Assembly (NCBI GenBank): GCA_016191105.1
Contig: JACPPH010000006.1
Span: 32,670-96,669, forward strand
DNA length: 64,000 nucleotides
Source: Candidatus Saccharimonadota bacterium
GTDB lineage: Bacteria > Patescibacteriota > Saccharimonadia > CAILAD01 > BJGX01
Reading direction: 5' to 3'
Part shown: positions 22,262 to 59,981 of the stretch, piece after piece
Layout of the letters: the number at the start of each line of letters is the position of its first letter
How positions within the stretch are numbered: position 1 is the stretch's first letter
Program-made: the position numbers and the translations under genes
Notes under the pieces: generated by a model
The model's input: only the letters and a program-made list of their open reading frames with translations
Database searches by the model: none
What the model was told of the DNA's origin: nothing

Positions 22262-22273
22262 AGGAGGAGCTCA

Positions 22274-24637: not shown

Positions 24638-24667
24638 TCCGACCCCAACCCAACGGAAGGAAATTCC

Positions 24668-25561: not shown

Positions 25562-25595
25562 GCCAACAACAGCAATATCGCAAGCAATGGGTCGC

Positions 25596-25645
25596 AAGAC
25601 CCCGAAAAGGACTTCGGAATTTTCCGTCACCCATTTCGGGGTTCT
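25596..25645 (+). terminator. Rho-independent terminator after purC
   Basis: aagaccccgaaaaggacttcggaattttccgtcacccatttcggggttcttttcgttta. Confidence 0.55.
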
Positions 25646-25979
25646 TTTCGTTTAAGCAAAATTTGCTATTGGCATGTCGGCATTTGGCGTTGTGCAAAAA
25701 GTTGGCCAAGGCCAAATAAAATTCGTAGCGTCTAAAAAATTAAATGTAAAAATTGTTAAAAATGTTTTGGGCAAATTTAGTACAGTATAAAAAAAGCAGG
25801 TTAGCGTTTGCCCGGGGGCGTTGCTAACCTGTTGGAAGAGCTTTGTTTTTGTTTTTGAGTAATTTATGTGTGCAGCACTAATACAATAATAGCGCTTATG
25901 CTGAGTACCTGTCAACAACTTTTTTGAACTTTTTTATAAGTTTTTTAATACAAAATTTTATTCGTGCACCCCCCAACAA

Positions 25980-26984
25980 TTATAATTGGCCGTCGCGGGC
26001 GAGTGAGTTGAGCGCCAAGCGCTCAATAAATGCAATTTGAGCCGGCGCAATATTACGCTTTTTGCCACGCCACGTACTCAGCGCTGGTTCTTGCACGGCC
26101 CGTGAATACGAAAAGCTAATTGGCCAAGGCTCTTTGCCGGCCCGGGCAATGGCGTTGAGATCCTCGGTAGCTTGCCGAGGAGTCTGCCCACCAGATAGAA
26201 AGACGATTCCGGCTACCTCCTTGGGCACCCGCTGGCGTAACACCCTTACAGTAGCTTTGGCCACATCTGATGGGCTAGACGGCCTAGAGCTGTCGTGGCC
26301 AGCCAAAACCATACTGGTTTTTAAAATAACACCCTTAAGATCGACCCGATAAGCAATTAACAGATCGAACAGCACTCGCAACACCTGGGAAACCACTTGC
26401 TCGCAGGTTTCTAGGCTGTGATTGCCCTCATATAGCACCTCAGGTTCGACGATTGGCACCATACCGGCCGACTGAACCAAGCAGGCATAGCGAGCCATCT
26501 GGTTGAGATTGGCGTGAATAGCCGCGGCAGTTGGCAGGCGTAATTTAGAGTCTATCTGAAAAGCTGCCCGCCACTTGGTAAAGCGAGCGCCCATTTTGTA
26601 GTATTCGTCGAGGCGTTCGGCCAGGCCATCTAGGCCTTCGGTAATGGTCTCGGGCTCGAAGTTGGTGAAGGGGACTAAGCCTTTGTCGACCTTAATGCCC
26701 ACAGCTATACCTTGCCTTCGCAAATATTTGGTAAACTTAATACCAGAGTTGGTTTTTTGGCGAATGGTCTCGTCGTATAGAATAACTCCACTAATATATT
26801 GTGCGAAGTTAGGTGCAGTAAATAGCAAATGGCGATATCGGCGCCGCATTTCGGGCGAACTGGGTATGCGCAAGGCTGCAAACCGCTTCTCGGCCGACTT
26901 ATTGCTTTCATCGGCTGCCAGCAGGCCCCTAGGGTCGGCCATAAGATCCTTGGCTATCTTGGCTAAATCACTATTAGCGCTCAT
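25980..26984 (-). CDS. fba: Fructose-bisphosphate aldolase, class I
   Basis: GLLAADES…, LKGVILKTSMV (active-site Lys region) and IVFLSGGQ. Confidence 0.85.
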   Translation of the reverse strand: MSANSDLAKIAKDLMADPRGLLAADESNKSAEKRFAALRIPSSPEMRRRYRHLLFTAPNFAQYISGVILYDETIRQKTNSGIKFTKYLRRQGIAVGIKVDKGLVPFTNFEPETITEGLDGLAERLDEYYKMGARFTKWRAAFQIDSKLRLPTAAAIHANLNQMARYACLVQSAGMVPIVEPEVLYEGNHSLETCEQVVSQVLRVLFDLLIAYRVDLKGVILKTSMVLAGHDSSRPSSPSDVAKATVRVLRQRVPKEVAGIVFLSGGQTPRQATEDLNAIARAGKEPWPISFSYSRAVQEPALSTWRGKKRNIAPAQIAFIERLALNSLARDGQL

Positions 26985-44078: not shown

Positions 44079-45551
44079 ATGCAAAACAAAAACCACAGCC
44101 ATTTTTTGAGTTTGCCTCCCAAAATTTCTAAATCTGGGCAAAGGCCGAGTATGAAAGCCAGATTGTGGTTTGTAGCGATTGGAGTTCTGGCAGCTGTTGT
44201 AGTACTCAATGCTCTGGTAGCTGCCCTGTTCGAGGGCGTAATTTACCCGGGCGTTTCAGTCGCAGGGCACGACTTGAGTTTCAAAAATCGAGCCCAGGCA
44301 TTACAAGTTTTGCGCTCACAGAATCTTGACCGCCGCTTTGATTTGCGAGTTGGCGATAAAACATTCATCGCTACCAATAGTGATTTGGGGGCTGAGTATG
44401 AGCTAGGAGCTACGATTGAGGCTGCTTATAATGTCGGTCGCAACTGGCCTTTGCCGTTGGCTGGGCTAATAGAAGCCAGCAATAAAGGCACGGTTGGTTA
44501 TGCTTATAACATTAATAACACCCAGCTCAGTAAATTCACAGACAGCGTAGTTAGCTCGGTCGGGCGTGATCCGGTTAACGCAACATTGCAAATAACTGAC
44601 GGCAATATAAATGTAGTGCCAGATCGGGACGGATTACGGGTAGACCGGCGTTACCTTAACGATCTAATTGCCAATGCTCTGGCCGACGGAAAAGACCAAA
44701 CAATTAGTTTGCAGCCTGTGCCCAAAAAAGCCGACATTTTGGCAAAAGATACCGCTGCCGCCCAAAAACGAGCCGAAGATTATTTGAGTCGTCAAATATC
44801 ATTAAGCTATAACGGCAAGACATTTGTGCTAGATAGAACCGCTTTGGGGTATATGATAGTTTTCAATATTGTATCTGGATCCGATGGCAGGCCAGAGTTA
44901 AAAGCCGACATTTCTAAAGAGCAAATTTTGGGCTATCTACAATCTGTGGCTAACCAAGTGGATGTGGCTGCCCAAAATAAAATTGTAGTTGTTAGAAACG
45001 GTGCCAACTCGGTAGAGCAGGAAGGCAAAAATGGCACGACCATAAACCAACAACCGGCCGCCGATGCGATATTTACGGCACTCCAAAATGGTCAGAATAC
45101 AACGATAGCGCTAACTGATTCGCCGGTGCCGTTTCAAACTCAAACTAGCAACAGCAATGGTCCAGATGCCCGCATGTACATCGAGATTAATTTATCGAGC
45201 CAACGCCTATGGGCCTACCAAGATGGGCAGGTCGTTTATAGCTCACCAATAACAAGCGGCGCTACCGGCAAAGGGTTTCCGACTGTAACGGGCACATTTG
45301 CTATTTACGCCAAAGAAAGAAACCGCTACCTTAATGGCGCCGTCTATGGCTACGACTATAATGTCTTTGTTCAATACTGGATGCCTTTTTATCAGGGCTA
45401 TGGCCTACACGATGCTAGTTGGCGCAATAGCTTTGGTGGACAAGACTATTGGTTGAACGGCAGCCACGGTTGTGTAAATATGCCATTGGCAGCAGCAGTC
45501 TTCTTGTATGATTGGGCGCCAATTGGTACACCCGTTTGGGTACATAGCTAA
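44079..45551 (+). CDS. L,D-transpeptidase (YkuD) catalytic-domain protein with an N-terminal membrane anchor. An alternative start is at 44151.
   Basis: C-terminal …HGCVNMPLAAAVFLYDW… matches the YkuD catalytic motif (His…Cys). Confidence 0.75.
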   Translation: MQNKNHSHFLSLPPKISKSGQRPSMKARLWFVAIGVLAAVVVLNALVAALFEGVIYPGVSVAGHDLSFKNRAQALQVLRSQNLDRRFDLRVGDKTFIATNSDLGAEYELGATIEAAYNVGRNWPLPLAGLIEASNKGTVGYAYNINNTQLSKFTDSVVSSVGRDPVNATLQITDGNINVVPDRDGLRVDRRYLNDLIANALADGKDQTISLQPVPKKADILAKDTAAAQKRAEDYLSRQISLSYNGKTFVLDRTALGYMIVFNIVSGSDGRPELKADISKEQILGYLQSVANQVDVAAQNKIVVVRNGANSVEQEGKNGTTINQQPAADAIFTALQNGQNTTIALTDSPVPFQTQTSNSNGPDARMYIEINLSSQRLWAYQDGQVVYSSPITSGATGKGFPTVTGTFAIYAKERNRYLNGAVYGYDYNVFVQYWMPFYQGYGLHDASWRNSFGGQDYWLNGSHGCVNMPLAAAVFLYDWAPIGTPVWVHS

Positions 45552-45590
45552 AATTAGCCAAAGCTGAACCATAACTGGTATAATTTTAGT

Positions 45591-46031
45591 ATGGATAACC
45601 GTACGCAAAATCTGCCAATACCAGAGCAGCCTAGGCGACCCCAGGGCAACGAACGAAAGCCGGTATTAAAGCCTGAGGTGGCACCAAAAGCTCCAGAAGT
45701 TCAGATGCAGCAGCCAGAGGTTCGTCCGTCTGGTGTGGAGCAACAACCACAAGCTAACCCAGCGCCACAAGCTGCCACACCGCCACCAGCACCAGCTTCT
45801 CCACTTACACAGCAGCCAGCTGCCCAGCCCGACCCGCTCGCGCAGGCCGGTGTAAAGACCCGCCCCGAAACTCTAGATGCTGACGATATTGATCTTATAG
45901 AAAAGGAATGGGTCGACACAGTCGATGATGTGATTGAGCATACTAAGGATGATCCGTACACTGAAGAGGAAGCTCAACAGAGCTTAAGCAAAACCTATCT
46001 AAAAAAGCGTTTTGGGATTGATGTTGATTAA
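45591..46031 (+). CDS. Pro/Ala/Gln-rich hypothetical protein
   Basis: Low-complexity PAPQA repeats followed by a conserved-looking acidic C-terminus. Confidence 0.4.
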   Translation: MDNRTQNLPIPEQPRRPQGNERKPVLKPEVAPKAPEVQMQQPEVRPSGVEQQPQANPAPQAATPPPAPASPLTQQPAAQPDPLAQAGVKTRPETLDADDIDLIEKEWVDTVDDVIEHTKDDPYTEEEAQQSLSKTYLKKRFGIDVD

Positions 46032-46046
46032 TAAGTCGAACCAGCC

Positions 46047-48491
46047 ATGAATCAGTTTATACTACTAACTAGCACGCTGTTTGCACTGTTTCTGTTTATA
46101 CTCTTAGCAGTTGGTTTTTTGGTTTATCGACGCATAATTCATCATGCCAAAAATGTCGAGCGAAGTTTGAAGTTTGTGCCGTTACTGATTAGGCTACCGC
46201 CCCAAGAGGCCAACGAGGCCACCAATCGCGATGTGCGCGAAATGATCAAAGAAAACATTACTAAGGCCGAAGGTGTATTCAATTTACTATCTGGCATAAC
46301 AACTTCTAAGGCTCAAATTTATGGCCGCCGACACATTAGTTTGGAGATTATCGCTGAAGGGCCCATGATTTACTTTTATATGGCCGTGCCGGCTAGCCTT
46401 TTGAGCTCGGTTCAAAAAGCCCTGGCTTCCGGGTATCCAGGAATCCAGATCGAGAAAGCCGAGGATATAAACTTTTTTTCTAAAGTTAGCAAGGCCTCAG
46501 GCGTTCAGGGCGGTGAATTAGATCTCAAACGCGATAGCATACTGCCTATAAACACATTTCGCAATTCTGATAGCGATGCGCTGGGCGGTATTCTCTCCAG
46601 CTTATCTAATCTAGGAGACGATGAGGGAGCGGCTATACAGATTTTAATTCGTCCGGTATCTCAGCGCTGGGTAAAACGAGCCCACCGCAAAGCCCGAGCC
46701 TATTTGACAGGCAAAAAAACCGGTGGCGCCAAAGCTTTTTCGGCTGTTAGTGAATCAGTTCGAGCTGCTGGTGGTGGGTCGGGTGGTGAAAAGTCCCCCG
46801 CCGAAAACCATCAAGTTACCGACATGGAAAAAAAACGATCTGAAATTATTGAAGAAAAAGTTAGAACGCCGGCTTTTGAAACTAATATTCGGCTCGTAGC
46901 TAGCAGTGGCGATCCGGCCAAAGCCAAAGTGTTGTTGCAGGATATGTTGCTTGGCTTTGCGCAAATGACCCAGCAAGATGCTAATAGGTTTGAGTTCCAT
47001 CCAGCTGATACACCACAAAAGATCGCCACCGACTTTATATTCCGATTTTTTAATGAGCGCTTTTTACACCTTCATAAGATGGTCTTAAATTCGACTGAGT
47101 TGGCCACCATATTTCACCTACCAAGTGAAATTATTGAGATTGCTACCCCGCTGCAGCGCAAGGGCGTAAAGGAAGTTGCGGCTCCGACAGGCTTGCCGGA
47201 GCTGGGATTGGTATTGGGTACCAATATATTTCGTGGTGTTGAAGCAACCATTCATTTAAGCGATAACGATAGACGACGGCACTTATACATATTGGGTCAA
47301 ACTGGTACCGGTAAATCTACCTTGTTAGAGAACTTAATGTTGCAAGATGCCGCAGCTGGTAAGGGCTTTGCGTTTATTGACCCCCATGGCGATGCCGCCG
47401 AGAAGCTCTTGGCGATGTTGCCGCCCGGACGAGCCGAAGACGTAATCTACTTTAGCCCGGGCGATACAGAGGTGCCAATGGGCTTTAACATCATGGAATA
47501 CGACCCTAACAAGCCCGAGCAAAAAGACTTTCTGATCCAAGAAGCCATTCAGATGCTTTACAAGCTCTACGACCCACAGCATCAAGGGATAATTGGACCA
47601 CGCTATGAACACTGGTTTAGAAACGCTGCCCTGACAGTCATGGCTGACCCCGAGGGCGGTACCTTTGTGGAGATACCCAAGGTCTTTACTGATGATGAAT
47701 ATCTGAAAAAGAAATTCAAGTATTTAACAGACCCCACTGTCCAAGACTTCTGGACCGGTGAAATGGCTCAAACCGATGCCCACTCTAAATCTGAAATGCT
47801 GGGTTGGTTTGTGTCTAAATTTGGAGCCTTTGCCAACAATGAGATCATGCGAAACATTATTGGCCAAAAACATTCAGCTTTTAACTTTCGCGAAGTTATG
47901 GATGGCAACAAGATTTTGCTGGTGAATTTGAGCAAAGGCCTACTTGGCGACCTCAACTCCAAGTTGCTAGGTATGATTATGGTTATTAAGTTTCAGATGG
48001 CGGCTATGAGTCGAAGCGATACACCCGAAGATCAGCGCCCCGATTTTTCTGTGTACGTAGATGAGTTTCAGAACTTTAGTACTGATAGTTTTGCAACCAT
48101 TCTCTCGGAAGCTCGAAAATACCGGCTAAACCTAATTGTGGCCAATCAATTTATATCGCAATTGGACGAGCAGGTGCGTGACGCCGTATTTGGAAATGTC
48201 GGCTCAATTTTAAGCTTTCGGGTAGGAACCGACGATGCTGAATACATGGAAAAACAATTCCAGCCACAATTTAATCAGGCCGACCTTATAAATATACCCA
48301 ATGGCCAAGGTGTTGGCAGGGTTATGGCCAATGGTGTGCCAACCACACCGTTTAGTATTCATTTCCCACCACCAATAGGCGTGCCTAATCAAGAAATTTT
48401 AAAAGCCATGCGCGATCTAAGCCGTAGTAAGTATGGTCGGCCCAAGAACGAAGTCGAAGCCGAAATTACCAGTAGCCTGGCCGACAAATAA
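46047..48491 (+). CDS. Membrane-anchored P-loop ATPase of the type IV secretion VirD4/TraG-VirB4 (DUF87-like) superfamily
   Basis: N-terminal transmembrane helix, Walker A GQTGTGKST, Walker B VYVDEFQNF. 814 aa. Confidence 0.55.
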   Translation: MNQFILLTSTLFALFLFILLAVGFLVYRRIIHHAKNVERSLKFVPLLIRLPPQEANEATNRDVREMIKENITKAEGVFNLLSGITTSKAQIYGRRHISLEIIAEGPMIYFYMAVPASLLSSVQKALASGYPGIQIEKAEDINFFSKVSKASGVQGGELDLKRDSILPINTFRNSDSDALGGILSSLSNLGDDEGAAIQILIRPVSQRWVKRAHRKARAYLTGKKTGGAKAFSAVSESVRAAGGGSGGEKSPAENHQVTDMEKKRSEIIEEKVRTPAFETNIRLVASSGDPAKAKVLLQDMLLGFAQMTQQDANRFEFHPADTPQKIATDFIFRFFNERFLHLHKMVLNSTELATIFHLPSEIIEIATPLQRKGVKEVAAPTGLPELGLVLGTNIFRGVEATIHLSDNDRRRHLYILGQTGTGKSTLLENLMLQDAAAGKGFAFIDPHGDAAEKLLAMLPPGRAEDVIYFSPGDTEVPMGFNIMEYDPNKPEQKDFLIQEAIQMLYKLYDPQHQGIIGPRYEHWFRNAALTVMADPEGGTFVEIPKVFTDDEYLKKKFKYLTDPTVQDFWTGEMAQTDAHSKSEMLGWFVSKFGAFANNEIMRNIIGQKHSAFNFREVMDGNKILLVNLSKGLLGDLNSKLLGMIMVIKFQMAAMSRSDTPEDQRPDFSVYVDEFQNFSTDSFATILSEARKYRLNLIVANQFISQLDEQVRDAVFGNVGSILSFRVGTDDAEYMEKQFQPQFNQADLINIPNGQGVGRVMANGVPTTPFSIHFPPPIGVPNQEILKAMRDLSRSKYGRPKNEVEAEITSSLADK

Positions 48492-48567
48492 CAAAAAACT
48501 TGCAAACCATCGTCAACCAGTCTAAAATCAAAGCTAAAGTAATAAAGCTGTATATGAGGGTAAACAC

Positions 48568-50850
48568 GTGAATACATTTCGAAAATTAGTAACCGGCGTT
48601 AGTTCGGGTACTACCCCCGTTAGCAGACTGAAGTTTTATGGCAGCCGCCTAGCCCAAGAGGCGGCAACTCGAAAGATTGCAACAGTCTTAATGATTGGCT
48701 TGCTTATATTTCAGGTGGCGGTTTTTCTTTTCCCGCCAACCTCGGCCAGGGCTAACCAGTGCTCAGAAAATAATATCATTCGACCCTGTGGCATAACAGA
48801 CACTAGTAATCAGGGAGTGCTAAATGCTCTTAAGGGACCCGACAATGCAATTCAGCTTATGAATCAGCTAGGGGTGACAGACAGCGATGTTTTAAATGGC
48901 ACCCCTAATCAAACCGTTTGTAAAGGTCAAAATCCGCTTTCTATGGGTCGGGAGGCCGGTAGCGGTGGTTCCTGGTTATTCCCGGGGCATACAGACATTT
49001 ATGTAGGGCCTGCCAGCAGCAGATGGCAGCAAGAATGTTTCTCGGCAGAATTACTCGGCAACAAGGTGCGAGGCAGCGATATTGGTACTGGCGATCCCAA
49101 CCAGTGGTACCAGGTCGGCATTCTATATGCTTGTGGCAACTTGGTGTTTATACCAACCAGCCCGCCTTCAAAATCAATAGCTTGTACCTCCCTAGAAGCG
49201 GCACCATTGGCAGTCGACGTAAACCAGCCTATAAAACTAACTGGCCGGGCAAGTGGCCAAAATATTCCCAACGGCGAACTGGTCGATATGTCGTACCTTG
49301 TATACAGAGGCACCAATCCATCTGTAAATACAACGCCACTAGTTACAAAACTTGAGTCCAAAGGAATACCGTGGAACGGCACAGAGTTTATCGATGACAA
49401 TCCGCCTAAGCAGTTCCAGACAGATCAGCCTGATACCTATACTATTTTATTGGCCGTTGGCTATAACAATAATGGAGCACCTGCGCTAGCTCCAGGCTCA
49501 GGTGTAAATGAATGCCAAAAAGTTGTTACCGTAAAGCAACCGGCACAGCCCACAATTGTTTGCCAGAACCTGAGCATTGCCCCTACTACGCTTGCAGGTG
49601 GACAGCCGCTGTCCAATCTAACCGGTACAGCACAGCTAAAAAATTCCAACGACCCTAATGAGCTAGCTGACATGTCGTTTATATTCCGTGAAAAACAAGC
49701 CGATGGCAGCTTTACTGAGGTGCCTGATGCTAAAGGTAAGAGTAGGCTTGAGGCAGCTGGATTACAGCCTAGCGGCACCGGTATTTACACCGCTGTCAAG
49801 CCAAGTTCAGGCGATTCAAATGATACATTCTTTATGCCCACGAGCACACAGCAAAAAACGTACCAGGTATTCTTAAGAATATACTGGCGTGGCCATCAGA
49901 CTGTTTCCGATGCCTTTAGTGTGCCAGCCTGCCAAAAAGAAATTACAGTGCCACCAGTACAGAACTTTGCTTGCTCTAGCCTAAAGGCGAATCCAACCAG
50001 TGGTAGTGCTCCGCTCGACGTTAACTTCGATGCTGCAGGCATAGCTACCAACACCACTGTTTCAGCTTTTAAGTTCGATTACGGTGATGGCCAAAATCAA
50101 ACCGTAAATACCAACCAGCCAACCGCCAGGGCAGTTCACAAATATACCAAAGGAGGAAGATACACGGCCTCAGTAATTATGCAAACTGCTGCGGGGACGA
50201 CGTCTGTAGTTCCGGTCTGCCAGGCGGTCGTAACAGTTAACGAAAGTGATTTTGCCAAGATTGCTGCCAATATAACCCTGCTTACGTCTGACAGGCAGCC
50301 GACCGATGCCAATGGTGCTGTAGCAAGGGCAGGCGACCAATTGCGCTACACGATCGGTGTTCAAAACAAGGGCGGCGATGTTATAAGGGGCTTTGTGTTT
50401 GATGATGATATAACCGACATATTGGTCTACGCGGATGTAGTTGATCCAGGTGGTGCCCAGGCAGTTAAGCAAGGCGCAACCACTAAATTGGTTTGGGCTC
50501 CGATTGACATACCGGTGGGCACGAGTAGTAGCCCAGGAACAGTCACCAAGCAGTTTACAGTTAAACTTAAAGACCCTATCCCGTTTGTTGCCCAGAAGAC
50601 TACCGATCTACCGGGTACAAACGACTGCCAATTAACCAATACATTTCGTAGCAAAGTGGTTGTAACTCCGCTAGGCGTTGATATCAACAAGCAAATTGAG
50701 TGCGTAACCAAGCAGCTTCCGCAAACTGGTGCGGGCTGGAGTATAGTAATTATGGCTATGCTAGCGGCTGCTTCATTCTTCTTGTTATTGCGCAACCGAT
50801 TGCTCAAGCGTGAGCTACAATTAGTTGAAACACTAACGGAGGGAGCATAA
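48568..50850 (+). CDS. LPXTG-anchored surface protein with a PKD-like domain
   Basis: Signal/transmembrane N-terminus. LPQTG followed by a hydrophobic stretch and RNRLLKR. FDYGDGQ…YTKGGRYTASV is a PKD motif. Confidence 0.7.
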   Translation: MNTFRKLVTGVSSGTTPVSRLKFYGSRLAQEAATRKIATVLMIGLLIFQVAVFLFPPTSARANQCSENNIIRPCGITDTSNQGVLNALKGPDNAIQLMNQLGVTDSDVLNGTPNQTVCKGQNPLSMGREAGSGGSWLFPGHTDIYVGPASSRWQQECFSAELLGNKVRGSDIGTGDPNQWYQVGILYACGNLVFIPTSPPSKSIACTSLEAAPLAVDVNQPIKLTGRASGQNIPNGELVDMSYLVYRGTNPSVNTTPLVTKLESKGIPWNGTEFIDDNPPKQFQTDQPDTYTILLAVGYNNNGAPALAPGSGVNECQKVVTVKQPAQPTIVCQNLSIAPTTLAGGQPLSNLTGTAQLKNSNDPNELADMSFIFREKQADGSFTEVPDAKGKSRLEAAGLQPSGTGIYTAVKPSSGDSNDTFFMPTSTQQKTYQVFLRIYWRGHQTVSDAFSVPACQKEITVPPVQNFACSSLKANPTSGSAPLDVNFDAAGIATNTTVSAFKFDYGDGQNQTVNTNQPTARAVHKYTKGGRYTASVIMQTAAGTTSVVPVCQAVVTVNESDFAKIAANITLLTSDRQPTDANGAVARAGDQLRYTIGVQNKGGDVIRGFVFDDDITDILVYADVVDPGGAQAVKQGATTKLVWAPIDIPVGTSSSPGTVTKQFTVKLKDPIPFVAQKTTDLPGTNDCQLTNTFRSKVVVTPLGVDINKQIECVTKQLPQTGAGWSIVIMAMLAAASFFLLLRNRLLKRELQLVETLTEGA

Positions 50851-50851: not shown

Positions 50852-51469
50852 ATGGCTGAAAAAGGTGGCGAAGAACTCCAGGGAGTAGGTAGCGAGCAGC
50901 AGGGCGAGAAGCTTCAGGCCGAATTAAGTGCCGAAAGGAAAAGTGCCAAGGCCACAGAGCGCGAGATTAAATCTTCTAAAGCAGAGCTTGAAAAAAGCGG
51001 TGAAAAAGCCGAGAAAAAATTAGCTCGTGAGGCCGAGAAAGAAGCCACCGAAGCTAATTTAGCCAAAAAATCTGAAGCTTCTGAAGCCAAAAAGGCTAAG
51101 CAGGCCGAAAAATCAGAAAAAAAAGAACCAATAGTAGCCGCCACACCCAAAGAGCGTAATCGAGCCTACAAAAAAGAAATGCGCAAGGTTCAGGCGCAAC
51201 TCTCACCAGGCTCTAGAATGTTTTCTAAGGTTGTACATAACCGAGCCGTAGAGGTCACCAGCAATGTGGCCGAAAAAACAGTTGTTCGTTCGTCGGTGTT
51301 GATTGGTGGTACGGTTGTGGGCATTATACTTGGCGGCCTAGTGTACTTTTCTGCTAATCGGTATGGTTACGGATTGCCCAATTGGTCGTTGGTATTCTTT
51401 TTAATAATGGGTGGTGTATTGGGTGTAGTAATTGAATTTTTACTCAAAGCCACACGCTCTACTAAGTAA
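50852..51469 (+). CDS. Lys/Glu/Ala-rich protein with C-terminal transmembrane helices
   Basis: A long charged, helical, low-complexity segment, then two hydrophobic helices at the C-terminus. Confidence 0.45.
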   Translation: MAEKGGEELQGVGSEQQGEKLQAELSAERKSAKATEREIKSSKAELEKSGEKAEKKLAREAEKEATEANLAKKSEASEAKKAKQAEKSEKKEPIVAATPKERNRAYKKEMRKVQAQLSPGSRMFSKVVHNRAVEVTSNVAEKTVVRSSVLIGGTVVGIILGGLVYFSANRYGYGLPNWSLVFFLIMGGVLGVVIEFLLKATRSTK

Positions 51470-51565
51470 TATATTACATCTAGCAACATAGTGGTTTGAC
51501 CTGGCCTGCTGGTGCTTATAATGGTAATATTGTAAGCATAAGAATATTCAATTATAGGTTGGGCT

Positions 51566-52405
51566 TTGAATCTTAGTGTTTTCAAGAGTGGCTTGAGGTT
51601 TTTGGGGTGCTTTTTTGGCACTGTTTTAGTTTTAATACTTGTGGCTCAAGCCTCTACTGCCGCAACGGTCTCTCAGGGCTATCAAAGCAACGACATATTG
51701 GTTACTGGCAACATTGTGAGCACAAATAGCAATGCCAACAATTACCAGGTTCAGCTTGCTACTACTGATAATTTTAACAATCTTTTGGGTATAGTGGTGA
51801 CGCCGAATTCTACTCTGCTCAGCATAGACAATACCTCGAGCTCAGCTCAGGTGGCAAGCAGCGGTGTTGCAAATGGCTTTGTCAGCGACATTAATGGCAA
51901 TATCAGCAAAGGTGACGCAGTTGCCATTTCTCCTATAGCAGGTGTAGGGATGAAGGCTACGCAACCAACGCGAATAGTTGGTGTTGCTCAAGCCGATTTT
52001 AAGTCGGCTACAAATGTACAGTCAAAAAATCTAGTAGATAAGCAGGGTCAATCTAAGCAAGTCCGAGTTGGGTTAATCCCGGTCTTGGTGAACGTTGGCG
52101 ATTATCAGCCCAGCAATTATTCTGGCAATTCTGCGGTTGTACGCGGCGTACAGTCGGCCGTTTCTAATCTCGCTGGCCGGTCAGTATCGGCAACCAGAGC
52201 TATGGCGGCTTTTGGGGTCATAACGCTCGCTATTATATTGGCCATTATTGTTTTGTATGCCTCGGTGACCGGGAGTATACGTTCAATTGGCCGAAATCCA
52301 TTGGCCAAGAAATCAGTTTTGCGAAGTTTGGCCCAGGTAATAGTGGCAGTAGGATTAATAATAGTCGCGGCAATCGCAGCCGTATATGTAATAGTAATCG
52401 CTTAA
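51566..52405 (+). CDS. Secreted Asn/Ser/Thr-rich protein with a C-terminal helix-loop-helix membrane hairpin
   Basis: Signal peptide. C-terminal …AIILAIIVLYASVTGSIRSIGRNPLAKKSVLRSLAQVIVAVGLIIVAAIAAVYVIVIA. Confidence 0.4.
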   Translation: MNLSVFKSGLRFLGCFFGTVLVLILVAQASTAATVSQGYQSNDILVTGNIVSTNSNANNYQVQLATTDNFNNLLGIVVTPNSTLLSIDNTSSSAQVASSGVANGFVSDINGNISKGDAVAISPIAGVGMKATQPTRIVGVAQADFKSATNVQSKNLVDKQGQSKQVRVGLIPVLVNVGDYQPSNYSGNSAVVRGVQSAVSNLAGRSVSATRAMAAFGVITLAIILAIIVLYASVTGSIRSIGRNPLAKKSVLRSLAQVIVAVGLIIVAAIAAVYVIVIA

Positions 52406-52411
52406 AACATT

Positions 52412-53812
52412 ATGACAACCACTACAAAAACCCAGTCTGTTTCAAAAGTGCTTTCACGCCAAGGCTTTGTGGTAGAAGCGAACCCGATTGAGGGGATTCA
52501 CTTGCGAGCAACTGTAGAATTCGAGGATGGCACAATCGGCCTGGTTTGGGCTATAGAAGACACCATGAGGGTGTTGCTGCTAAATGATAGCGAAAAGGCC
52601 ACTGTTGGCTCCAAGCTCAAGCCACTACACCGGCAGGTTGCAATCGATTGTGGCGAGCACCTTTTGGGTCAAACAGTCGATTCTTTGGCCAGGCCGCTCG
52701 ATGCTAAAACCAAAGCGACTGCAGGCCAAGCTTTGCCAGTTTTTAATCTGGCGCCAAGCTTTTATGAGCGAGCCGTTGTGGACGCACAACTTGAAACCAG
52801 CGTAAGCTTGGTGGATACGCTCTTCCCCATAGTCAAAGGCCAACGCATAGCGGTCTTGGGCGATGCCAAGTCGGGTAAAACAACTTTTTTAAGCCAAGCT
52901 GCTATTCACCAGGCCCAGAACGATTGCATAATAATCTACGTTGTGATAGCCAAGGCCAAGCACAGTGTCGAAAAACTTAAATATAGACTATATCAGTCGG
53001 GGGCACTTAAGAACACAGTGATTGTGGTGGCCGACAGCTTCGATGCTTTGCCGCTATCGTTTTTGGCCCCCTACACCGGCTGTACTATTGGCGAATGGTT
53101 CTGGCACACCGGTCGCGATGTGGTAGTTATTTATGATGATTTGAGTAATCACGCCAAAATATACCGTGAACTTAGTTTGCTGCTTCGGACGAATCCGGGC
53201 AGAGAGGGTTATCCGGGCAATATGTTCTATACCCACTCCTCGTTATTAGAGCGAGCCGGTAAATTTAAAAAAAGCGGTTTTAGCCAGACAGTTTTAGCCG
53301 CTGGTACAACACCCAACGGCGATATAACTGGTTATTTTCCAACCAATCTAATATCTATGACCGACGGTCAGATCGTATTCGACCTCGAGACTATGCGCAA
53401 GGGAATTAAGCCGGCGGTTAATATTGGCTTGTCGGTTAGTCGTGTAGGTGGTCGCAGCCAAGAGCCCGAAATTCAAGAGCTTTCGGCTCGTGTTATGGAG
53501 GTTTTGGCAGGTTATCGACAGGCTAGCAGTTTTGCAAGGTTTGGTTCACAGCTTTCGGAGGTAGCCGCCAAGCAGCTTAAGCTTGGAGCCAAACTTTATG
53601 AACTGTTTGCTCAAGCGCCAGACCAAGCTTTTAGCCTAGCTGAGCAACGAGTAATGTTAGAAACGATATTTTTAACCAATGACATCGATTCTTTAAATGT
53701 TGGCTGGCTTAAGAGTGTGATCCACGACGTTGTTAAGTATGACCTCAAAACTACCAGTGATTATAAAGCCTTGGCCAAAGAGCTGATTAAAAGTAACCCG
53801 GTGGTTAAATAA
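52412..53812 (+). CDS. F1-ATPase alpha-subunit homologue (divergent, 466 aa)
   Basis: GDAKSGKT P-loop where GDRQTGKT is usual. Colinear similarity to AtpA (…LAPYTGCTIGEWF…IYDDLSNHAKIYRELSLLLRTNPGREGYPG…). Confidence 0.8.
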   Translation: MTTTTKTQSVSKVLSRQGFVVEANPIEGIHLRATVEFEDGTIGLVWAIEDTMRVLLLNDSEKATVGSKLKPLHRQVAIDCGEHLLGQTVDSLARPLDAKTKATAGQALPVFNLAPSFYERAVVDAQLETSVSLVDTLFPIVKGQRIAVLGDAKSGKTTFLSQAAIHQAQNDCIIIYVVIAKAKHSVEKLKYRLYQSGALKNTVIVVADSFDALPLSFLAPYTGCTIGEWFWHTGRDVVVIYDDLSNHAKIYRELSLLLRTNPGREGYPGNMFYTHSSLLERAGKFKKSGFSQTVLAAGTTPNGDITGYFPTNLISMTDGQIVFDLETMRKGIKPAVNIGLSVSRVGGRSQEPEIQELSARVMEVLAGYRQASSFARFGSQLSEVAAKQLKLGAKLYELFAQAPDQAFSLAEQRVMLETIFLTNDIDSLNVGWLKSVIHDVVKYDLKTTSDYKALAKELIKSNPVVK

Positions 53813-54654
53813 TGGCTAAACCAACAGAAATTTTACGTGCTTACCAAGACACTATCGTGGTTGAAGAGGTCGCCCAGGTGTTTGAAAATGTTGCTTCTGT
53901 CCAGATTAGACGAATTAAAAGCAGGGTTATTGCAAGCCGGGAGTTTTTTCATGAACTGTGGGGAATGTACTCGCAGCTACGGTTAGATAGTAAGCTGAAA
54001 GATGATTTTGGGCCAGCCAAAACCAAAAACCAAGCCGTGCTATTAATCAGCTCAGACAGCGGCCTTTCGGGTTCGATCGATGAACGTCTAGTTGAGACCA
54101 TGATGCAAGAGGTCAACATTCGCTTAGTAGATGTGGTGGTTATCGGTCGGCGTGCGGAACAATTATTGACCCAAAAGCACATGAAAGCCGTTAGCGTTTT
54201 CCCGTTGCCCGACATTACCAAATCAATTCGGATATTGCCGCTGGTGAACTATCTGGCGCCATATAAAAAAGTAACTATATTTTATGAACGATTCGTGTCT
54301 TTGTCGCACCAAGAGATAGTTGCCTTTGAGCTTCAGGAGAGCGTAAAGCGCTTAAGCGAAGCCGAGTCGATTCGCGTAGACACAAACTTAATGTATGCCA
54401 GTGATTATATTTTCGAGCCTAGCCTGGCTGAGGTAGTTCTTTATCTGGAATCCATGATGCAGGCCACTGCCCTTACCGAGATGATTCTGGAGTCAAGATT
54501 GGCTCAGCTAGCCAGTCGCTATACAGCCATGAGCTCGGCTCACGACAATGCCGAGCAGAGAAAAAACCAGCTCAAGCGAGCCTACTCAATTGCTCAACGC
54601 CGAGGCAAAGACCAATTTAACCAAATATTTATTAGTCGGGAGCAGGCTAAATGA
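53812..54654 (+). CDS. F1-ATPase gamma-subunit-like protein
   Basis: Its position between the alpha and beta genes, 280 aa, and an N-terminal helix (…VQIRRIKSRV…) all fit a gamma subunit. Confidence 0.5.
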   Translation: MAKPTEILRAYQDTIVVEEVAQVFENVASVQIRRIKSRVIASREFFHELWGMYSQLRLDSKLKDDFGPAKTKNQAVLLISSDSGLSGSIDERLVETMMQEVNIRLVDVVVIGRRAEQLLTQKHMKAVSVFPLPDITKSIRILPLVNYLAPYKKVTIFYERFVSLSHQEIVAFELQESVKRLSEAESIRVDTNLMYASDYIFEPSLAEVVLYLESMMQATALTEMILESRLAQLASRYTAMSSAHDNAEQRKNQLKRAYSIAQRRGKDQFNQIFISREQAK

Positions 54655-55958
54655 AAACCTTTGTTGGCAAAGTGGTAAAAATGCGGTGGCTGCTAGTTAC
54701 AGTAGAGTACACAGGCGATAAGCCTCAGATATTTGAGTTGTTAAGCACCGGCAGTAAAAGTTTGCTGCTGGTTTACTGCATAGAGTCAGAGACTAGGCTT
54801 TTGGCTCTTAGTTTAGACCCCAATCTTACCGTAGCCTTGGGCGAAAAAATATCCAGCTTGAATAAGCACATTACACTACCGGTTGGTAGCGACGCTCTAG
54901 GCAGGGTTTTTAATGCCACTGGCACAGCTGTAGATGGCCTGCCGACGCCTAAGTCAACTACTACCATTGAGCTTAAGCCTTACCACGGCAGCGGCAAAAG
55001 TGGCTATGGTACATCTACAGATCTAATAGAAACAGGCATAAAAGTAATTGATTTCTTTGCCCCGTTTGTGCGAGGCCGCAAGATCGGCATAGTTGGTGGC
55101 GCAGGAGTGGGCAAGACTGTGCTTACAACCGAGCTAATGCACAACGTAGCCAGCGCCGATCGGGGCTTATCGTTTTTTGTTGGGATTGGTGAGCGCATAC
55201 GTGAAGCCCATGAGCTGTATAATAATCTGCGCGACAGCGGCCTACTAAAAAACACTGTTATGTATCTTGGCCAAATGAATGAAACGGCGGCTATGCGATC
55301 ATTGGTGGGTTTGAGTGCAGCCGCCAGTGCTCGTTACTTTCGCGACCAAGCCAAACGCGATGTGATATTTTTTGTAGACAATATTTACCGTTACCTGCAA
55401 GCTGGCAATGAGCTTGCTACCACCCTGGGTGAGTTGCCAAGCGAAGGGGGTTACCAGCCGACTCTGTTTTCTGATTTGCTTCAGTTTGAAGAGGGTCTAG
55501 ATACCAATGAATTTGGAGCCATAACTTCGGTCCAGTCGATCTTCATTCCGGCCGACGATCTTTCTGACCCAGCAGTTGTTGAGGTTTATCAGCAGCTCGA
55601 TAGTGTAATTGTACTGAGCCGCGAGGTTATGGAGTCTGGCATATTGCCAGCTGTAGATTTGGTCAACACCAGCTCGTCGTTGCTCTCGCCCGAAATTGTT
55701 GGTGAACGCCACTACTTTTTGGCTTCGCAAGTGGCCCAAATAATGCAAAAATACCAAGCCTTACAAGGAATTATTACGATTATTGGTGAGAGCGAACTAT
55801 CTATAACCGACCGCGTTGACTATAACAAGGCCAAAAGATTAATCGACTACTTTTCACAGTCCCTGTTTGTGACCGAACAGCTAACCGGCAAGAAGGGCCA
55901 GTATGTTGACCGCGAGGCCATGTTGTCGGGAGTTGAGGAGATATTAACCTCGGGATAG
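54651..55958 (+). CDS. F1-ATPase beta-subunit homologue
   Basis: GGAGVGKTV P-loop, …FVDNIYRY…, and a DELSD-like SELSITD. Confidence 0.85.
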   Translation: MKTFVGKVVKMRWLLVTVEYTGDKPQIFELLSTGSKSLLLVYCIESETRLLALSLDPNLTVALGEKISSLNKHITLPVGSDALGRVFNATGTAVDGLPTPKSTTTIELKPYHGSGKSGYGTSTDLIETGIKVIDFFAPFVRGRKIGIVGGAGVGKTVLTTELMHNVASADRGLSFFVGIGERIREAHELYNNLRDSGLLKNTVMYLGQMNETAAMRSLVGLSAAASARYFRDQAKRDVIFFVDNIYRYLQAGNELATTLGELPSEGGYQPTLFSDLLQFEEGLDTNEFGAITSVQSIFIPADDLSDPAVVEVYQQLDSVIVLSREVMESGILPAVDLVNTSSSLLSPEIVGERHYFLASQVAQIMQKYQALQGIITIIGESELSITDRVDYNKAKRLIDYFSQSLFVTEQLTGKKGQYVDREAMLSGVEEILTSG

Positions 55959-55960
55959 TT

Positions 55961-56209
55961 ATGCGGCCAACCTTTGAAGTCAAGATATTCTCACCATTTG
56001 AGACATACTATCAAGGCCAAGCTTACAGCTTATCGGCCAATAATGCCAGCGGACCATTTGATGTGCTGGCCGGCCACGCTAACTTTATCTGCCTGCTTTT
56101 ACCAGGCCCAGTGCGCATTGATACGCCCTATGGCCAGCGTGAGTACAATCTGACGCGTGGAATTGTTAGGGTTAATCAGAGTAAAGTTACACTGTTCGCC
56201 AATGTTTAA
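55961..56209 (+). CDS. F1-ATPase epsilon-subunit-like protein (N-terminal beta-sandwich only, 82 aa)
   Basis: Its position after the beta gene. …FDVLAGHANFI…G.VRV… resembles the AtpC N-domain. Confidence 0.5.
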   Translation: MRPTFEVKIFSPFETYYQGQAYSLSANNASGPFDVLAGHANFICLLLPGPVRIDTPYGQREYNLTRGIVRVNQSKVTLFANV

Positions 56210-56687
56210 AGCCATGAAGTGGAAGAAGCCACCTTTAAACAAAGTCTACGAGGCATTGGCTGTAATTGCTGATGGCAGAATTAAAATAACTGGCAATACA
56301 GCTCAAATCGTCTCAAGCAGCGGTAATAAAACCTATCAAGTAATTTATAGCCCCAAAAAAAATGCAATCACCGCCAACGACAACGGTAGCTTTTGGCAGG
56401 GCTACTTGGGCTATACCTGCATAGCCTTTTTACTCAAGAAGGGATTGGTTGAATTTGATCATGGCCTAGCTAAATATTTAAAGGGATTTATGTGGAAAGA
56501 CATGGCTGGTCGTTTTAAGCACGATTATAATCAGATAGATGCCTTTGTTGAGCAAGAAATAGCCAAAAAGCACCCAAACTTTAACTTGGCCGAGTTTCAT
56601 AAGCAACTAGAGAAAATATTGGCCGATGCTATGAAGCTAGACCTAAATAGGCTCCGATCGCCCAAAAAACCACCAGCCGGCTATTAA
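56202..56687 (+). CDS. Hypothetical protein (161 aa)
   Basis: ORF that overlaps the stop of the epsilon-like gene. Confidence 0.35.
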   Translation: MFKAMKWKKPPLNKVYEALAVIADGRIKITGNTAQIVSSSGNKTYQVIYSPKKNAITANDNGSFWQGYLGYTCIAFLLKKGLVEFDHGLAKYLKGFMWKDMAGRFKHDYNQIDAFVEQEIAKKHPNFNLAEFHKQLEKILADAMKLDLNRLRSPKKPPAGY

Positions 56688-56774: not shown

Positions 56775-59700
56775 GTGGAGCCGACAGCACAAACAAATAA
56801 TCAAACACTCGATTCAACATTTTCATCTCAAGTGAATCCCGAAGGTTTGCTGCCTTCGGATGTTGCTAGTGCCAACAATCAAGTTCAGGCATTACATCAG
56901 CGCAATCGCTACTTTCAGCTATTGTGGGCGGTTTTAATTGCCATTGCTCTACTTTTAGTTGGTTTGGCGGTTTGGCTTTTTTTGCGCAATAATACCAAGG
57001 TAATTAGTACTACCGGTGTTGCCGAACAGTACAGCCCGACCAGAGTTAATTTGACTAATACCGGCAATCCGACCGCGGTTAATTTGGGGCAGGTAAACAT
57101 TAATGGTGACCTCCAGGTTTTAGGTGATATTGCAGTCGGTGGCAGTATAAACGGCAACGGCAGCGGCATTACCAACATAAACCCAAACAATATTTCTGGA
57201 GTTATACCCGTTGGTCAGCTCGACCCAAATGTGGCGCTTCTCAACCGGAACTTTCAAACCTTTGTGGGCACCAATCAATTCTTTCGTAATAGTAGTAACT
57301 CAGTAGCGGCTTTTGAGATTCAAAATGCCTCCTCAGCACCGATTTTTAGCGTTGACACTAGCCAGGGTGCAGTGGCGATTAATTCGACGGTAACCTCACA
57401 GAATGGACTACAATTTGAAACTAACGGCAATGGCCGCTTTGCGGGCACACTCCAGGTGGGCGCCCAGTCAAATCCCAGTGTTTCGATTTTGAATACCGGC
57501 ACCCTGTTTAGCAACGACATTCAGCGCGTATTGACGGTCCAAGACATTACTCAGCCAAGCACAAATGTGCCTGGCCGAATTTACGTTGGAACCAGTGCCG
57601 AGCTATTGGCCGATCCACAAATTGATCCGGTTGCTATCACCTACTATCCGCTTCCTCCTGGTTTTCCGACCAACGTCCCGCTAACTGTTTCTGGTAATAA
57701 AAATATCTTTGCTGGCGGCTATTCGGCCGTACAAACAGCCAGCACTAACAGTAAGGACTATTTTATTGTTGGTGGCAACCTTAGTGGTGCCACACATGCT
57801 GGGTCGGGCAACGTTTTGGTAGATATTGGTCAGTTTAGTACGGTGAGTAATGTAGGTGCTGGATCAATTACGGCGGCGCTGGCAAATGTGGTGGCGCCAA
57901 CTATGACCCAGGGCGGCATTACCAACTACACCGGCTATACCGCACTTGACCCCCAGAGTTCAGCCCTAACTGGCTATGGTTTGCAGCCTTTGATAACTGG
58001 CGGGAGTTTGTTTACCCAAACTGGCATAGATATACAGTGGCAACACTCGGCTACTGGCGCAATTGGTACGTTTGCCAACTTAAATCTATATTCAGAAGGC
58101 CAGTCTTCAAATAACCTTATGGAGGGCTCGCTCATAATAGGTCAGTGCAACACATATAGTGCGGTTAACCTGTATGAGCTACTTAATATTGCTAATCCTA
58201 CCAACCGAACCAATTGTTTAAGCTCTACAGCAAATCAAGTTAGGTTGACCGTTGCAGGGACTGCTAGTCAGACCAGCGACCTAAGCCGATGGACAAATAG
58301 TAGTGGCACGGTGCTGGATAGCATTAGTTCGAGCGGCAAGTTGAATGTTCAAGGTTCGGGTTCGGAATTTGCGCTCAACGTAGGCAATACTAGCCTCAAC
58401 GGTGGCTTAATGATAAAAGGCACATTTGGCTCTGGCGACACCCTAACTACTACTGGCATCGGCACTAGAGCTTTTGTGTATCCAAAAAAAGCAGCCTTTC
58501 GGGCGGGTATTATTACAGGCAGTGGTCCGTATGCTGGTGCCGAATGGAACGATGCCAATATTGGCGACCGGACGGTTGTGTTTGGCAAAGACAGCGCCGC
58601 AGTTGGCAGCGATAACTTTGTGGCTGGCAATAACCTCAACGTTACTGGTTCTGCAAATGCAGTTTTTGGTGATGCGACTGGTTTTGGTGCTTCAATTGCC
58701 GGAATTGGAAATTTTAGTGTTGGCCCAAATACGATTAGTGCTACGACCGGCGTTGGCAATGCCGTGTTTAATGTGTTTAGTGGTGTTAGCTCTGTAATAA
58801 ACACGATTGGTACCGGCGGCAATGTAGTATTTGGTAACGGCAACTCAATCAGCACCGGCAGCTCTAACAGGTTATTTGGCAATAGCATTACTGCCACGGG
58901 TAGCAATGCCTATATAATTAACCTAAGCTCTACGGCAGTAAGTTCTTCGGCAAGCAATGTATTTTCGGTAATGAATGGCAAGGTAGGCATAGGCAGCACA
59001 AACCCCACTGCTCGCCTAGATGTTAGTGGTAGCTCGGGTACTGAAATAACGGCCATCTTCGACAACGGAACTTCTACTGGCGATATTATGCGCGCAAGAG
59101 ACGGCGGCACCCAAGTGTTCGCACTGGCAAATGAAGGTGCGGCCACATTCCAAAACAAAACTAACTCTACAGCGGCATTCCAGATTCAAAATGCTGCGGG
59201 AACTTCTAACTTGCTAATTGCTGATACCACCAATACCCGAATTGGCATTGGTGCTAGTGGACCAACCAACACTCTAACTGTTACCAACACAGGCACCACT
59301 AGTGTGGCCAAGTTTAATGGCTCAAGCAGCACCCAATGCACGGTGGTTACTGGCACCGGTTGGAGCTGTAGCTCCGACGAACGGTTAAAAACCAATATAC
59401 TATCGATTGATGATGGTTTGGATAAGATTATGCAACTGCGCGGCGTAACGTTTAATTGGGTGAGCGATCCGAACGGAGAACAGCAAGATGGATTTATAGC
59501 CCAGGAGGTTCAAAAAGTTTTGCCAGAGCTGGTAAGCACTGATACAAATGGTTACCAGAGCCTTAATAAAGACGGTATTTTAGCTTATCTTGTTAAAGCC
59601 GTTCAGCAACAACAGAGTCAAATTGACCAGCTAAAAAATATTGCTTCTAGCAGCGCTACGTCGATAGACGTAATTAAGATCCTTGCCGATGCCCAGGCCG

Positions 59701-59981
59701 TAACCCTAAGTGGCGACCTAACTGTAAATGGCCAAGTCGTGGTAGCTGGCAACTTGCAGCTCAAAGGCGACAACACGGGCGTAATTAGGGTACCGGCTGG
59801 CCAAACCCGTGTGCGCATGAGCTTTAATAGGCCATTCCAGGTGGCACCAAATGTTACGCTGACAGCCAAAGCCTTAACAAAAGTGAGCTACGCTGTTGAT
59901 AACGAATCAACTACCGGGTTCGATGTAATCTTGGAGTCGCCACAAGATCAGGATACGGTTTTGAATTACCACGCTCTCTAG
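56775..59981 (+). CDS. Large membrane-anchored surface protein resembling a tail fibre or beta-helix, with a C-terminal peptidase-S74 intramolecular-chaperone domain
   Basis: N-terminal signal anchor. Gly/Thr/Asn-rich repeats. C-terminal CSSDERLKTNI…GVTFNW…GFIAQEV is the motif of endosialidase/tail-fibre chaperone (S74) domains. Confidence 0.65.
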   Translation: MEPTAQTNNQTLDSTFSSQVNPEGLLPSDVASANNQVQALHQRNRYFQLLWAVLIAIALLLVGLAVWLFLRNNTKVISTTGVAEQYSPTRVNLTNTGNPTAVNLGQVNINGDLQVLGDIAVGGSINGNGSGITNINPNNISGVIPVGQLDPNVALLNRNFQTFVGTNQFFRNSSNSVAAFEIQNASSAPIFSVDTSQGAVAINSTVTSQNGLQFETNGNGRFAGTLQVGAQSNPSVSILNTGTLFSNDIQRVLTVQDITQPSTNVPGRIYVGTSAELLADPQIDPVAITYYPLPPGFPTNVPLTVSGNKNIFAGGYSAVQTASTNSKDYFIVGGNLSGATHAGSGNVLVDIGQFSTVSNVGAGSITAALANVVAPTMTQGGITNYTGYTALDPQSSALTGYGLQPLITGGSLFTQTGIDIQWQHSATGAIGTFANLNLYSEGQSSNNLMEGSLIIGQCNTYSAVNLYELLNIANPTNRTNCLSSTANQVRLTVAGTASQTSDLSRWTNSSGTVLDSISSSGKLNVQGSGSEFALNVGNTSLNGGLMIKGTFGSGDTLTTTGIGTRAFVYPKKAAFRAGIITGSGPYAGAEWNDANIGDRTVVFGKDSAAVGSDNFVAGNNLNVTGSANAVFGDATGFGASIAGIGNFSVGPNTISATTGVGNAVFNVFSGVSSVINTIGTGGNVVFGNGNSISTGSSNRLFGNSITATGSNAYIINLSSTAVSSSASNVFSVMNGKVGIGSTNPTARLDVSGSSGTEITAIFDNGTSTGDIMRARDGGTQVFALANEGAATFQNKTNSTAAFQIQNAAGTSNLLIADTTNTRIGIGASGPTNTLTVTNTGTTSVAKFNGSSSTQCTVVTGTGWSCSSDERLKTNILSIDDGLDKIMQLRGVTFNWVSDPNGEQQDGFIAQEVQKVLPELVSTDTNGYQSLNKDGILAYLVKAVQQQQSQIDQLKNIASSSATSIDVIKILADAQAVTLSGDLTVNGQVVVAGNLQLKGDNTGVIRVPAGQTRVRMSFNRPFQVAPNVTLTAKALTKVSYAVDNESTTGFDVILESPQDQDTVLNYHAL

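Follow-up and report, generated by a model that had tools for sequence, protein, structure and literature searches.

A putative non-chemiosmotic F-type ATPase with a c-like, ectodomain-bearing membrane protein in Saccharimonadia

F-type ATPases that work at the cell surface are known from mycoplasmas, in which F1-like X0 ATPases serve gliding and antibody cleavage. For ultra-small symbionts, the general idea of non-respiratory F-type ATPases is already in print: Seymour et al. (2023) describe a 'symbiotic' non-respiratory F-type ATPase which is encoded beside type IVa pili in Omnitrophota and whose beta subunit groups with Saccharimonadia. An operon in WWE3 and OP11 with alpha, beta, gamma and epsilon genes beside membrane proteins without homology to subunits a, b and c was reported by Kantor et al. 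(2013), who mentioned in passing a 'putative c' shared among Candidate Phyla Radiation (CPR) genomes. Here we describe a cluster of five genes in a 64-kb stretch of DNA (the window) from a Candidatus Saccharibacteria metagenome-assembled genome (MAG; NCBI locus tags HYX70_), encoding a c-like membrane protein followed by alpha-, gamma-, beta- and epsilon-like F1 subunits. Our reading of the organism's own genome covers this window. We interpret the cluster, with a probability of roughly 0.55, as an operon for a second, non-chemiosmotic, ATP-hydrolysing rotary F-type ATPase that is coupled to surface structures. In the literature that we searched, no description was found of a carboxylate-free c-like fusion protein, of a consistent absence of subunit a or of a derived form lacking b and delta.

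F1 genes and the c-like membrane protein

The four F1 genes lie on the forward strand. They encode an alpha-like protein [52412-53812, 466 amino acids (aa); PF00006, E=1.6e-62, and PF00306], a gamma-like central shaft (53812-54654, 280 aa; PF00231, E=7e-29), a beta-like catalytic subunit (54651-55958, 435 aa; PF00006, E=6e-58) and an epsilon-like protein (55961-56209, 82 aa; PF02823, E=1.5e-13, profile positions 1-78 of 80). These Pfam results confirm the initial annotation, made from the sequence by eye, which had placed the four genes here and had read the P-loops GDAKSGKT in alpha and GGAGVGKTV in beta, both of which are present. The alpha and gamma genes overlap by 1 nucleotide (nt), gamma and beta overlap by 4 nt, and beta and epsilon are separated by 2 nt; genes that overlap or almost touch in this way point to translational coupling. 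A promoter-like site (TTGACC, 15-nt spacer, TATAAT; 51496..51522, +) was read by eye in the 96-bp gap before the c-like gene and suggests that the ATPase genes form a separate transcription unit. It was omitted by our promoter consensus scan because of its 15-nt spacer.

Alignment with the E. coli subunits and with relatives of the window proteins showed that the catalytic Glu (GERIRE), the Walker B motif (FFVDNIYR) and the Arg finger of alpha (SVSRVGG) are conserved. The P-loop of alpha, which is the non-catalytic one, is also intact. Because the catalytic residues of alpha and beta are conserved, the enzyme should, as judged from its sequence, hydrolyse ATP. In the same alignment alpha lacks the short N-terminal delta-binding helix that E. 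coli and the relatives have, and beta is about 25 residues shorter at its C-terminus than the E. coli protein. Epsilon consists of the N-terminal beta-sandwich only, the C-terminal regulatory helices being absent. All four proteins score below the NCBIfam cut-offs for the canonical subunits, with 357 bits against 484 for alpha (atpA), 402 against 463 for beta (atpD), 83 against 194 for gamma (TIGR01146, atpG) and 49 against 67 for epsilon (atpC), in agreement with the earlier view that this is not a canonical atp operon.

The gene directly upstream of alpha (51566-52405, +) encodes a protein of 279 aa that is composed of a signal peptide, an ectodomain, an amphipathic helix and a C-terminal hairpin of two transmembrane (TM) helices joined by a GRNP loop. 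The ectodomain is beta-rich and spans about residues 34-180 (~150 aa). Members of the family are annotated as "hypothetical proteins". A word-indexed search returned 901 matches, and an exhaustive search of sequence-cluster representatives returned 659 at E<=1e-30 and 2384 at E<=1e-10. In a scan of GTDB species genomes the family was present in 263 species of Saccharimonadia. Common to all members are the signal peptide, the beta-rich ectodomain and the two loop-joined C-terminal TM helices. The ectodomain motifs SQGY and SPIxGVGMKA are invariant in the family, as is the hairpin loop GRNP (120/120 homologues). A loop of the form R-(Q/N)-P is the hallmark of F-type c subunits, including those of E. 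coli, Bacillus PS3, I. tartaricus, chloroplasts and mitochondria, and R-N-P is the form found in mitochondrial c subunits. The acidic residue that would bind an ion is missing: in 85 of 85 relatives, TM1 and the membrane core of TM2 are free of Asp and Glu, and no acidic residue occurs at the TM positions of the 120-sequence alignment. The sole semi-conserved polar residue is a Gln/Glu at the cytoplasmic boundary, at the start of TM2.

An AlphaFold2 (AF2) model of the 279-aa protein (pLDDT, the predicted local distance difference test, 82) was compared with known structures using Foldseek. The hairpin matches the ATP synthase c subunit of Chloroflexus aurantiacus (TM-score 0.87, root-mean-square deviation 1.3 A, 19% identity), and the ectodomain matches capsid decoration or cement proteins of the phages Borrelia phage BB1, phi29, T1 and TW1. 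PF23982, the family of the minor capsid protein gp53 of XM1, was matched by 8 of 20 members in Pfam (best E=6.8e-5). No relatives of the c-like protein were found in viral contigs, which therefore lend no support to the idea that the ectodomain came from phage recently. One further match to the c-like hidden Markov model (HMM) is a 1068-aa open reading frame (ORF) without GRNP (L063, 4214-7420), which may be a larger protein with the cement-like ectodomain only.

Assignment of the 279-aa protein as a c subunit rests on its position, topology, loop motif and structure, because sequence searches were non-significant. On these grounds we consider a remodelled c subunit, by origin, to be the probable rather than proven identity of the protein. 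The initial annotation had described it as a secreted Asn/Ser-rich protein; it is indeed secreted and encoded upstream of alpha, but with its C-terminal hairpin it is very probably a remodelled c subunit.

Other membrane and stalk subunits were searched for at three levels. Pfam searches with the 40 largest plausible ORFs of the window gave no match to ATP-synt_A, ATP-synt_C, ATP-synt_B or OSCP, and a c-subunit HMM and phmmer with E. coli subunit a found nothing among all window ORFs of >=50 aa. In 88 loci fetched with 10-kb flanks, whose ORFs were classed by HMMs made from the window and the first relatives, neither a canonical a gene nor a canonical c gene turned up within 10 kb in a search based on few seeds. 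Genes for b and delta (OSCP) are not in the window cluster; they are kept in 61 related loci. The block had been called Fo-less: this holds for a, b and delta throughout the 64 kb, but not for c, since a c-like hairpin is part of the protein encoded where atpE would be.

Related loci and linked surface genes

F1 genes lie directly downstream of the c-like gene for 67 of 86 non-redundant c-like genes, and in 61 of these 67 loci the order is c-like, b-like, delta-like, alpha, gamma, beta, epsilon. This is the canonical order atpE-F-H-A-G-D-C, except that the c-like gene takes the place of atpE and that atpB is absent. The b-like protein of the relatives combines an N-terminal TM helix with a long coiled coil, and their delta-like protein gives a weak OSCP match. 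Both genes are missing in six loci, the window among them. The window cluster has the layout by which we define the c-like-fusion ATPase cluster of Saccharimonadia: a gene for a protein with signal peptide, SPIxGVGMKA ectodomain and SIGRNP hairpin immediately precedes the F1 genes. In neighbour-joining trees of beta the six loci lacking b and delta form one clade, on longer branches, which is sister to b/delta-bearing loci and nested among b/delta-bearing clusters. The c-like tree broadly agrees, with the b/delta-bearing locus L009 falling within the six-locus group. The nested position indicates that the state without b and delta is derived by secondary loss. The layout without b and delta noted in the initial annotation is thus true of the window but confined to one small clade, most relatives keeping both genes. 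The five-gene layout is kept in six species, with beta identities of only about 60-77%.

Two complete c-like/b/delta/alpha/gamma/beta/epsilon clusters were found in each of three MAGs (L015/L017, L068/L071 and L035/L054). Each pair consists of a 'short' type, with a beta of about 435 aa, and a 'long' type, whose beta has 460-525 aa, and contamination of the bins is possible. Other c-like paralogues with a GRNP hairpin have giant ORFs of 2100-3250 aa as neighbours and no F1 genes next to them. They are located at about 10001-10800 in L065, L070, L077 and L087 and at 620-1468 in L073, and they fall into separate clades of the c-like tree; in L070 one giant gene is flanked by two c-like copies.

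Genes for surface structures accompany the clusters. Tail-fibre-like genes with a Peptidase_S74 domain follow epsilon in all six loci lacking b and delta, and in the clade of the window the cluster is usually preceded by genes for a DUF8128 ATPase, a PKD/LPXTG protein and a Lys/Glu-rich protein that we call p205. Among the 47 other loci with enough sequence, 25 have a Pam-like block of secreted pilins after epsilon. This block encodes secreted proteins of about 250-400 aa with a shared conserved C-terminal strand, together with proteins anchored by a C-terminal TM helix, a composition that matches the published description of the Pam pilus operon. Where the two cluster types were distinguished, the Pam-like block regularly follows the long type only. 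According to Troman et al. (2026), the conserved surroundings of the Pam pilus operon include ATP synthase genes and a gene for a tail-fibre-like protein; these authors found no dedicated trans-envelope assembly machine for the pilus and viewed the ATP synthase linkage as a coupling to ATP production. Three examples of the block were delimited (L057, 15838-20282; L071, 14539-18839; L006, 11681-18598). In these, a conserved divergent gene of about 345 aa directly follows epsilon and is succeeded by 2-6 secreted proteins ending in a common motif, ...TYxxTLTYICTxT[YF], and by C-terminal-TM-anchored proteins; these blocks probably correspond to the Pam pilus operon that Troman et al. (2026) described. 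Neither a Pam-pilin operon nor type IV pilus genes were found in the 64-kb window.

In the window itself the cluster is flanked as the initial annotation had it. Upstream lies a gene for a PKD/DUF11-like secreted surface protein (48568..50850, +; 760 aa) with an LPQTG sorting-signal-like C-terminus and a hydrophobic tail, and downstream a gene for an N-terminally anchored tail-fibre-like protein of 1068 aa (56775..59981, +) with a Peptidase_S74 intramolecular chaperone domain (E=6e-18); this surface synteny is conserved across the clade. The PKD protein is encoded upstream of the cluster throughout the p205 clade. It belongs to a conserved module (44079-50850) that comprises a YkuD transpeptidase, a Pro/Gln-rich 146-aa protein, a membrane-anchored DUF8128 / HerA-VirD4-like P-loop ATPase (46047..48491, +; 814 aa), the PKD protein and p205. 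The module recurs in 11 Saccharimonadia loci, once (L008) without F1 genes, and may serve to secrete or anchor the surface protein.

The p205 gene (50852..51469, +) is translationally coupled to the PKD protein gene and encodes 205 aa, forming a Lys/Glu-rich long helix and a hairpin of two C-terminal TM helices; its AF2 model is of low confidence (pLDDT 67). The family is small, with 9 clusters. We considered p205 as a substitute peripheral stalk and rejected this, as it shows no b-like similarity, is found alongside b and delta in L009, L012 and L038, and occurs without F1 genes: in Microsaccharimonas sossegonensis its homologue adjoins genes for a DUF8128 ATPase and a surface protein, and the vicinity is free of F1 genes. 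The C-terminal TM helices attributed to this protein in the initial annotation are present, but its place among the Fo positions is not supported, and it probably belongs to the upstream PKD/DUF8128 surface module and not to the ATPase.

A gene of the UCP014422 family (56202..56687, +; 161 aa) overlaps the epsilon stop by 8 nt. None of the related loci compared has it and, being found only in this genome among them, it is probably outside the system. Elsewhere in the window, a tmRNA gene (13304-13696, +; 107 bits) and a large serine recombinase gene (13628-15226, -) overlap at the 3' end of the latter. In the adjoining region (15900-26000), which has genes for a P-type ATPase, Fic, MOSC and SAICAR synthase, GC content varies between 0.40 and 0.57. 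The arrangement looks like an element integrated at ssrA.

Function of the ATPase and alternative explanations

A membrane subunit which is unable to carry protons and which displays an external domain suggests that the complex is probably an ATP-burning surface motor and not an energy-conserving enzyme. In the mechanism that we propose, alpha3beta3 would hydrolyse ATP and thereby turn gamma-epsilon, which would dock on the cytoplasmic GRNP loops of an oligomer of c-like hairpins, probably a ring. As there would be no proton path and no stator channel, storage of the energy as an ion gradient would be impossible. The energy would instead be passed mechanically across the membrane to a ring of ectodomains and from there to the surface structures encoded by neighbouring genes, which are tail-fibre-like and PKD/LPXTG proteins here and Pam-type pili in relatives.

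Canonical ATP synthases are present in Saccharibacteria. Southlakia epibionticum has a canonical atpZ-B-E-F-H-A-G-D-C operon, with an alpha of 511 aa and a c subunit of 70 aa, and in rhodopsin-bearing Saccharibacteria the operons are complete and encode c subunits with H+-binding motifs. Mahendrarajah et al. (2023) list the Saccharibacteria genome RIFCSPHIGHO2_12_FULL_41_12 in their count table with one each of AtpE, AtpB, AtpF and AtpH and two each of AtpA, AtpD, AtpG and AtpC, and RAAC3 with one copy of each. The former counts indicate that at least one Saccharibacterium has the canonical enzyme and a second alpha/beta/gamma/epsilon set, as mycoplasmas do, which is the kind of coexistence that had been suspected for the window. 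We infer that this second set is of the type described here. The organism of the window probably either uses a separate canonical F1Fo enzyme encoded elsewhere for its proton gradient or lacks one.

Several points weigh against a rotary surface motor. The family profile and the hairpin alone retrieved no c subunit from PDB sequences with HMMER, Pfam searches of 20 c-like members at E<=10 gave no c-subunit match, and hhalign against eight c subunits, while in register at RNP/RQP, was not significant (P=0.004, 8% probability). The GxGxGxG packing motif of c-ring TM1 is missing from the hairpin, and since a helical hairpin is a simple fold, the structural match alone is weak evidence. About 12 c-like paralogues with enough downstream sequence, in two paralogous clades, have no adjacent F1 genes, which means that the c-like family is not solely ATPase-linked. 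Subunit a, or b and delta, may lie elsewhere in the genome, outside the 64-kb window. The loss of b and delta leaves the complex with no evident stator, which makes it hard to see how torque would be used. The linkage to surface genes within one clade may in part be inherited synteny.

Some of these points would sit well with a soluble or peripheral F1-like ATPase that energises the export or assembly of surface proteins, comparable to FliI/FliJ in type III export, with the 279-aa protein co-transcribed and no rotor formed. In favour of this explanation, which we regard as unlikely, are the non-significant sequence homology between the hairpin and c subunits and the existence of c-like paralogues without F1 genes; the phage-cement-like ectodomain is a structural or adhesive type of domain, and in mycoplasmas, too, much of the F1-like part is cytoplasmic and loosely attached. 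It is opposed by the constant gene order, with the c-like gene in the exact atpE slot (67/86 loci), by the retention of gamma and epsilon, the subunits that bind the c-ring, and by the invariant cytoplasmic loop SIGRNP, which implies a conserved cytoplasmic partner.

It is quite improbable, in our view, that the cluster encodes a real, highly divergent ATP synthase or proton-pumping ATPase with subunit a, and perhaps b and delta, encoded elsewhere and with an unrecognised ion site such as the Gln/Glu at the start of TM2. That residue lies at the membrane boundary, 14 residues past the loop Arg, whereas the carboxylate of the E. coli and I. tartaricus c subunits lies 20 past it, and the membrane core has no Asp/Glu in 85 of 85 c-like proteins. 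All of the 88 loci are without an adjacent subunit a gene, and canonical c and a are readily recognised in other Saccharibacteria. On the other side, the NCBI and JGI annotations name the proteins F0F1 ATP synthase subunits, work on Saccharibacteria takes the F-type ATPase to be proton-coupled, and Kantor et al. (2013) took the similar WWE3/OP11 operon for an ATP synthase whose a, b and c could not be recognised. Most relatives also keep a peripheral stalk (b and delta); the window cluster, however, has lost both genes, along with the part of the alpha N-terminus that binds delta.

An interpretation of the cluster as the remains of an ATP synthase operon that is decaying in a reduced genome, to which the loss of b and delta, the shortened epsilon, alpha and beta, the longer branches of the window clade and the dispensability of ATP synthase in a cultured Saccharibacterium might point, is very improbable, and we rejected it together with a pseudogene, as the five ORFs are all intact and translationally coupled, the catalytic residues are kept and the same layout is conserved in the six species of the clade at the beta identities given above.

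A bolder form of the surface-motor interpretation, which we put forward as speculative and rather doubtful, is that in Saccharimonadia, and perhaps in other CPR bacteria, an F1 head spins a carboxylate-free c-ring in which each subunit displays a phage-cement-like domain. The ring would be a rotating or ratcheting base driving the assembly, extension or movement of Pam pili and of tail-fibre-like filaments that grip hosts. As a device that transmits ATP-driven torque across the membrane, the motor would have evolved from ATP synthase independently of the Mycoplasma gliding motor.

Metabolic reconstructions of CPR bacteria and Saccharibacteria routinely score "F-type ATPase present" and from this infer proton-coupled ATP synthesis. 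If the cluster cannot translocate ions, many such inferences would be wrong for genomes that have this type only. A surface motor of this kind, if true, would be a second, phylogenetically independent case, beside Mycoplasma F1-like X0, of an ATP synthase turned surface motor. Its membrane part, made up of a c-like hairpin and an ectodomain, is far simpler than that of Mycoplasma and easier to interpret, and could make force transfer across the membrane in F1-like X0 enzymes directly testable. For the recently described Pam pilus, the ATPase would be a candidate energy source or platform.

Comparison with known systems

With the canonical F1Fo enzyme (atpIBEFHAGDC) the window cluster shares the alpha-gamma-beta-epsilon order and fold, with the hairpin gene in the atpE position, and most Saccharimonadia relatives share b and delta with it as well. 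It differs from the canonical enzyme in that no subunit a was found, the hairpin has no carboxylate, a signal peptide and an ectodomain have been added, b and delta are missing, alpha and beta are shorter and epsilon is without its C-terminal helices. The N-ATPases differ as well. The scores with TIGR03305/03324 are 392 (beta) against a cut-off of 752 and 330 against 750, and their gene order is atpDCQRBEFAG, with AtpQ and AtpR, compared to alpha-gamma-beta-epsilon in the window.

The WWE3/OP11 operons of Kantor et al. (2013) are likened to the family of the window by description only. The Omnitrophota ATPase of Seymour et al. (2023) is likewise an F-type homologue beside pilus genes in ultra-small symbionts; its link is to type IVa pili, in contrast to S74 fibres and a PKD protein in the window and Pam-type pili in relatives.

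The initial annotation had likened the block to the F1-like ATPase clusters of Mollicutes, and the comparison with the Mycoplasma type 2 and type 3 F1-like X0 enzymes (the gliding G1-ATPase of M. mobile and the MIB-MIP-associated ATPase) supports a likeness of design but not of family. Both systems have alpha, beta, gamma and epsilon with intact catalytic motifs, lack genes for a, b, c and delta (in our case within the window), and have an alpha without the N-terminal delta-binding helix. In both, a protein with a signal peptide, an ectodomain and two C-terminal TM helices connected by a short loop is encoded directly upstream of alpha, an architectural likeness drawn from descriptions. The Mycoplasma enzymes coexist with a canonical F1Fo enzyme and are tied to cell-surface machinery. 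The window proteins, however, score below the family cut-offs, both for type 3 (MSC_0618/0619; beta 399 against 570 for MSC_0618, alpha 241 against 520) and for type 2 (MMOB1660/1670; 318 against 600 and 327 against 850), and the extra N-terminal domain of the type 2 beta has no counterpart in the window beta of just 435 aa. The seven-gene cluster of Mycoplasma also includes a 12-TM 'protein 1' and a small cytoplasmic 'protein 2', neither of which flanks the window cluster, and its order is gamma-epsilon-X-alpha-beta, compared to the canonical alpha-gamma-beta-epsilon here, in a different phylum. Unlike in Mycoplasma, most Saccharimonadia relatives keep b and delta, and the ectodomain is small (about 150 aa) and phage-cement-like. 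On the sequence comparisons made, the likeness to Mycoplasma F1-like X0 is one of analogous design and does not extend to membership in those families.

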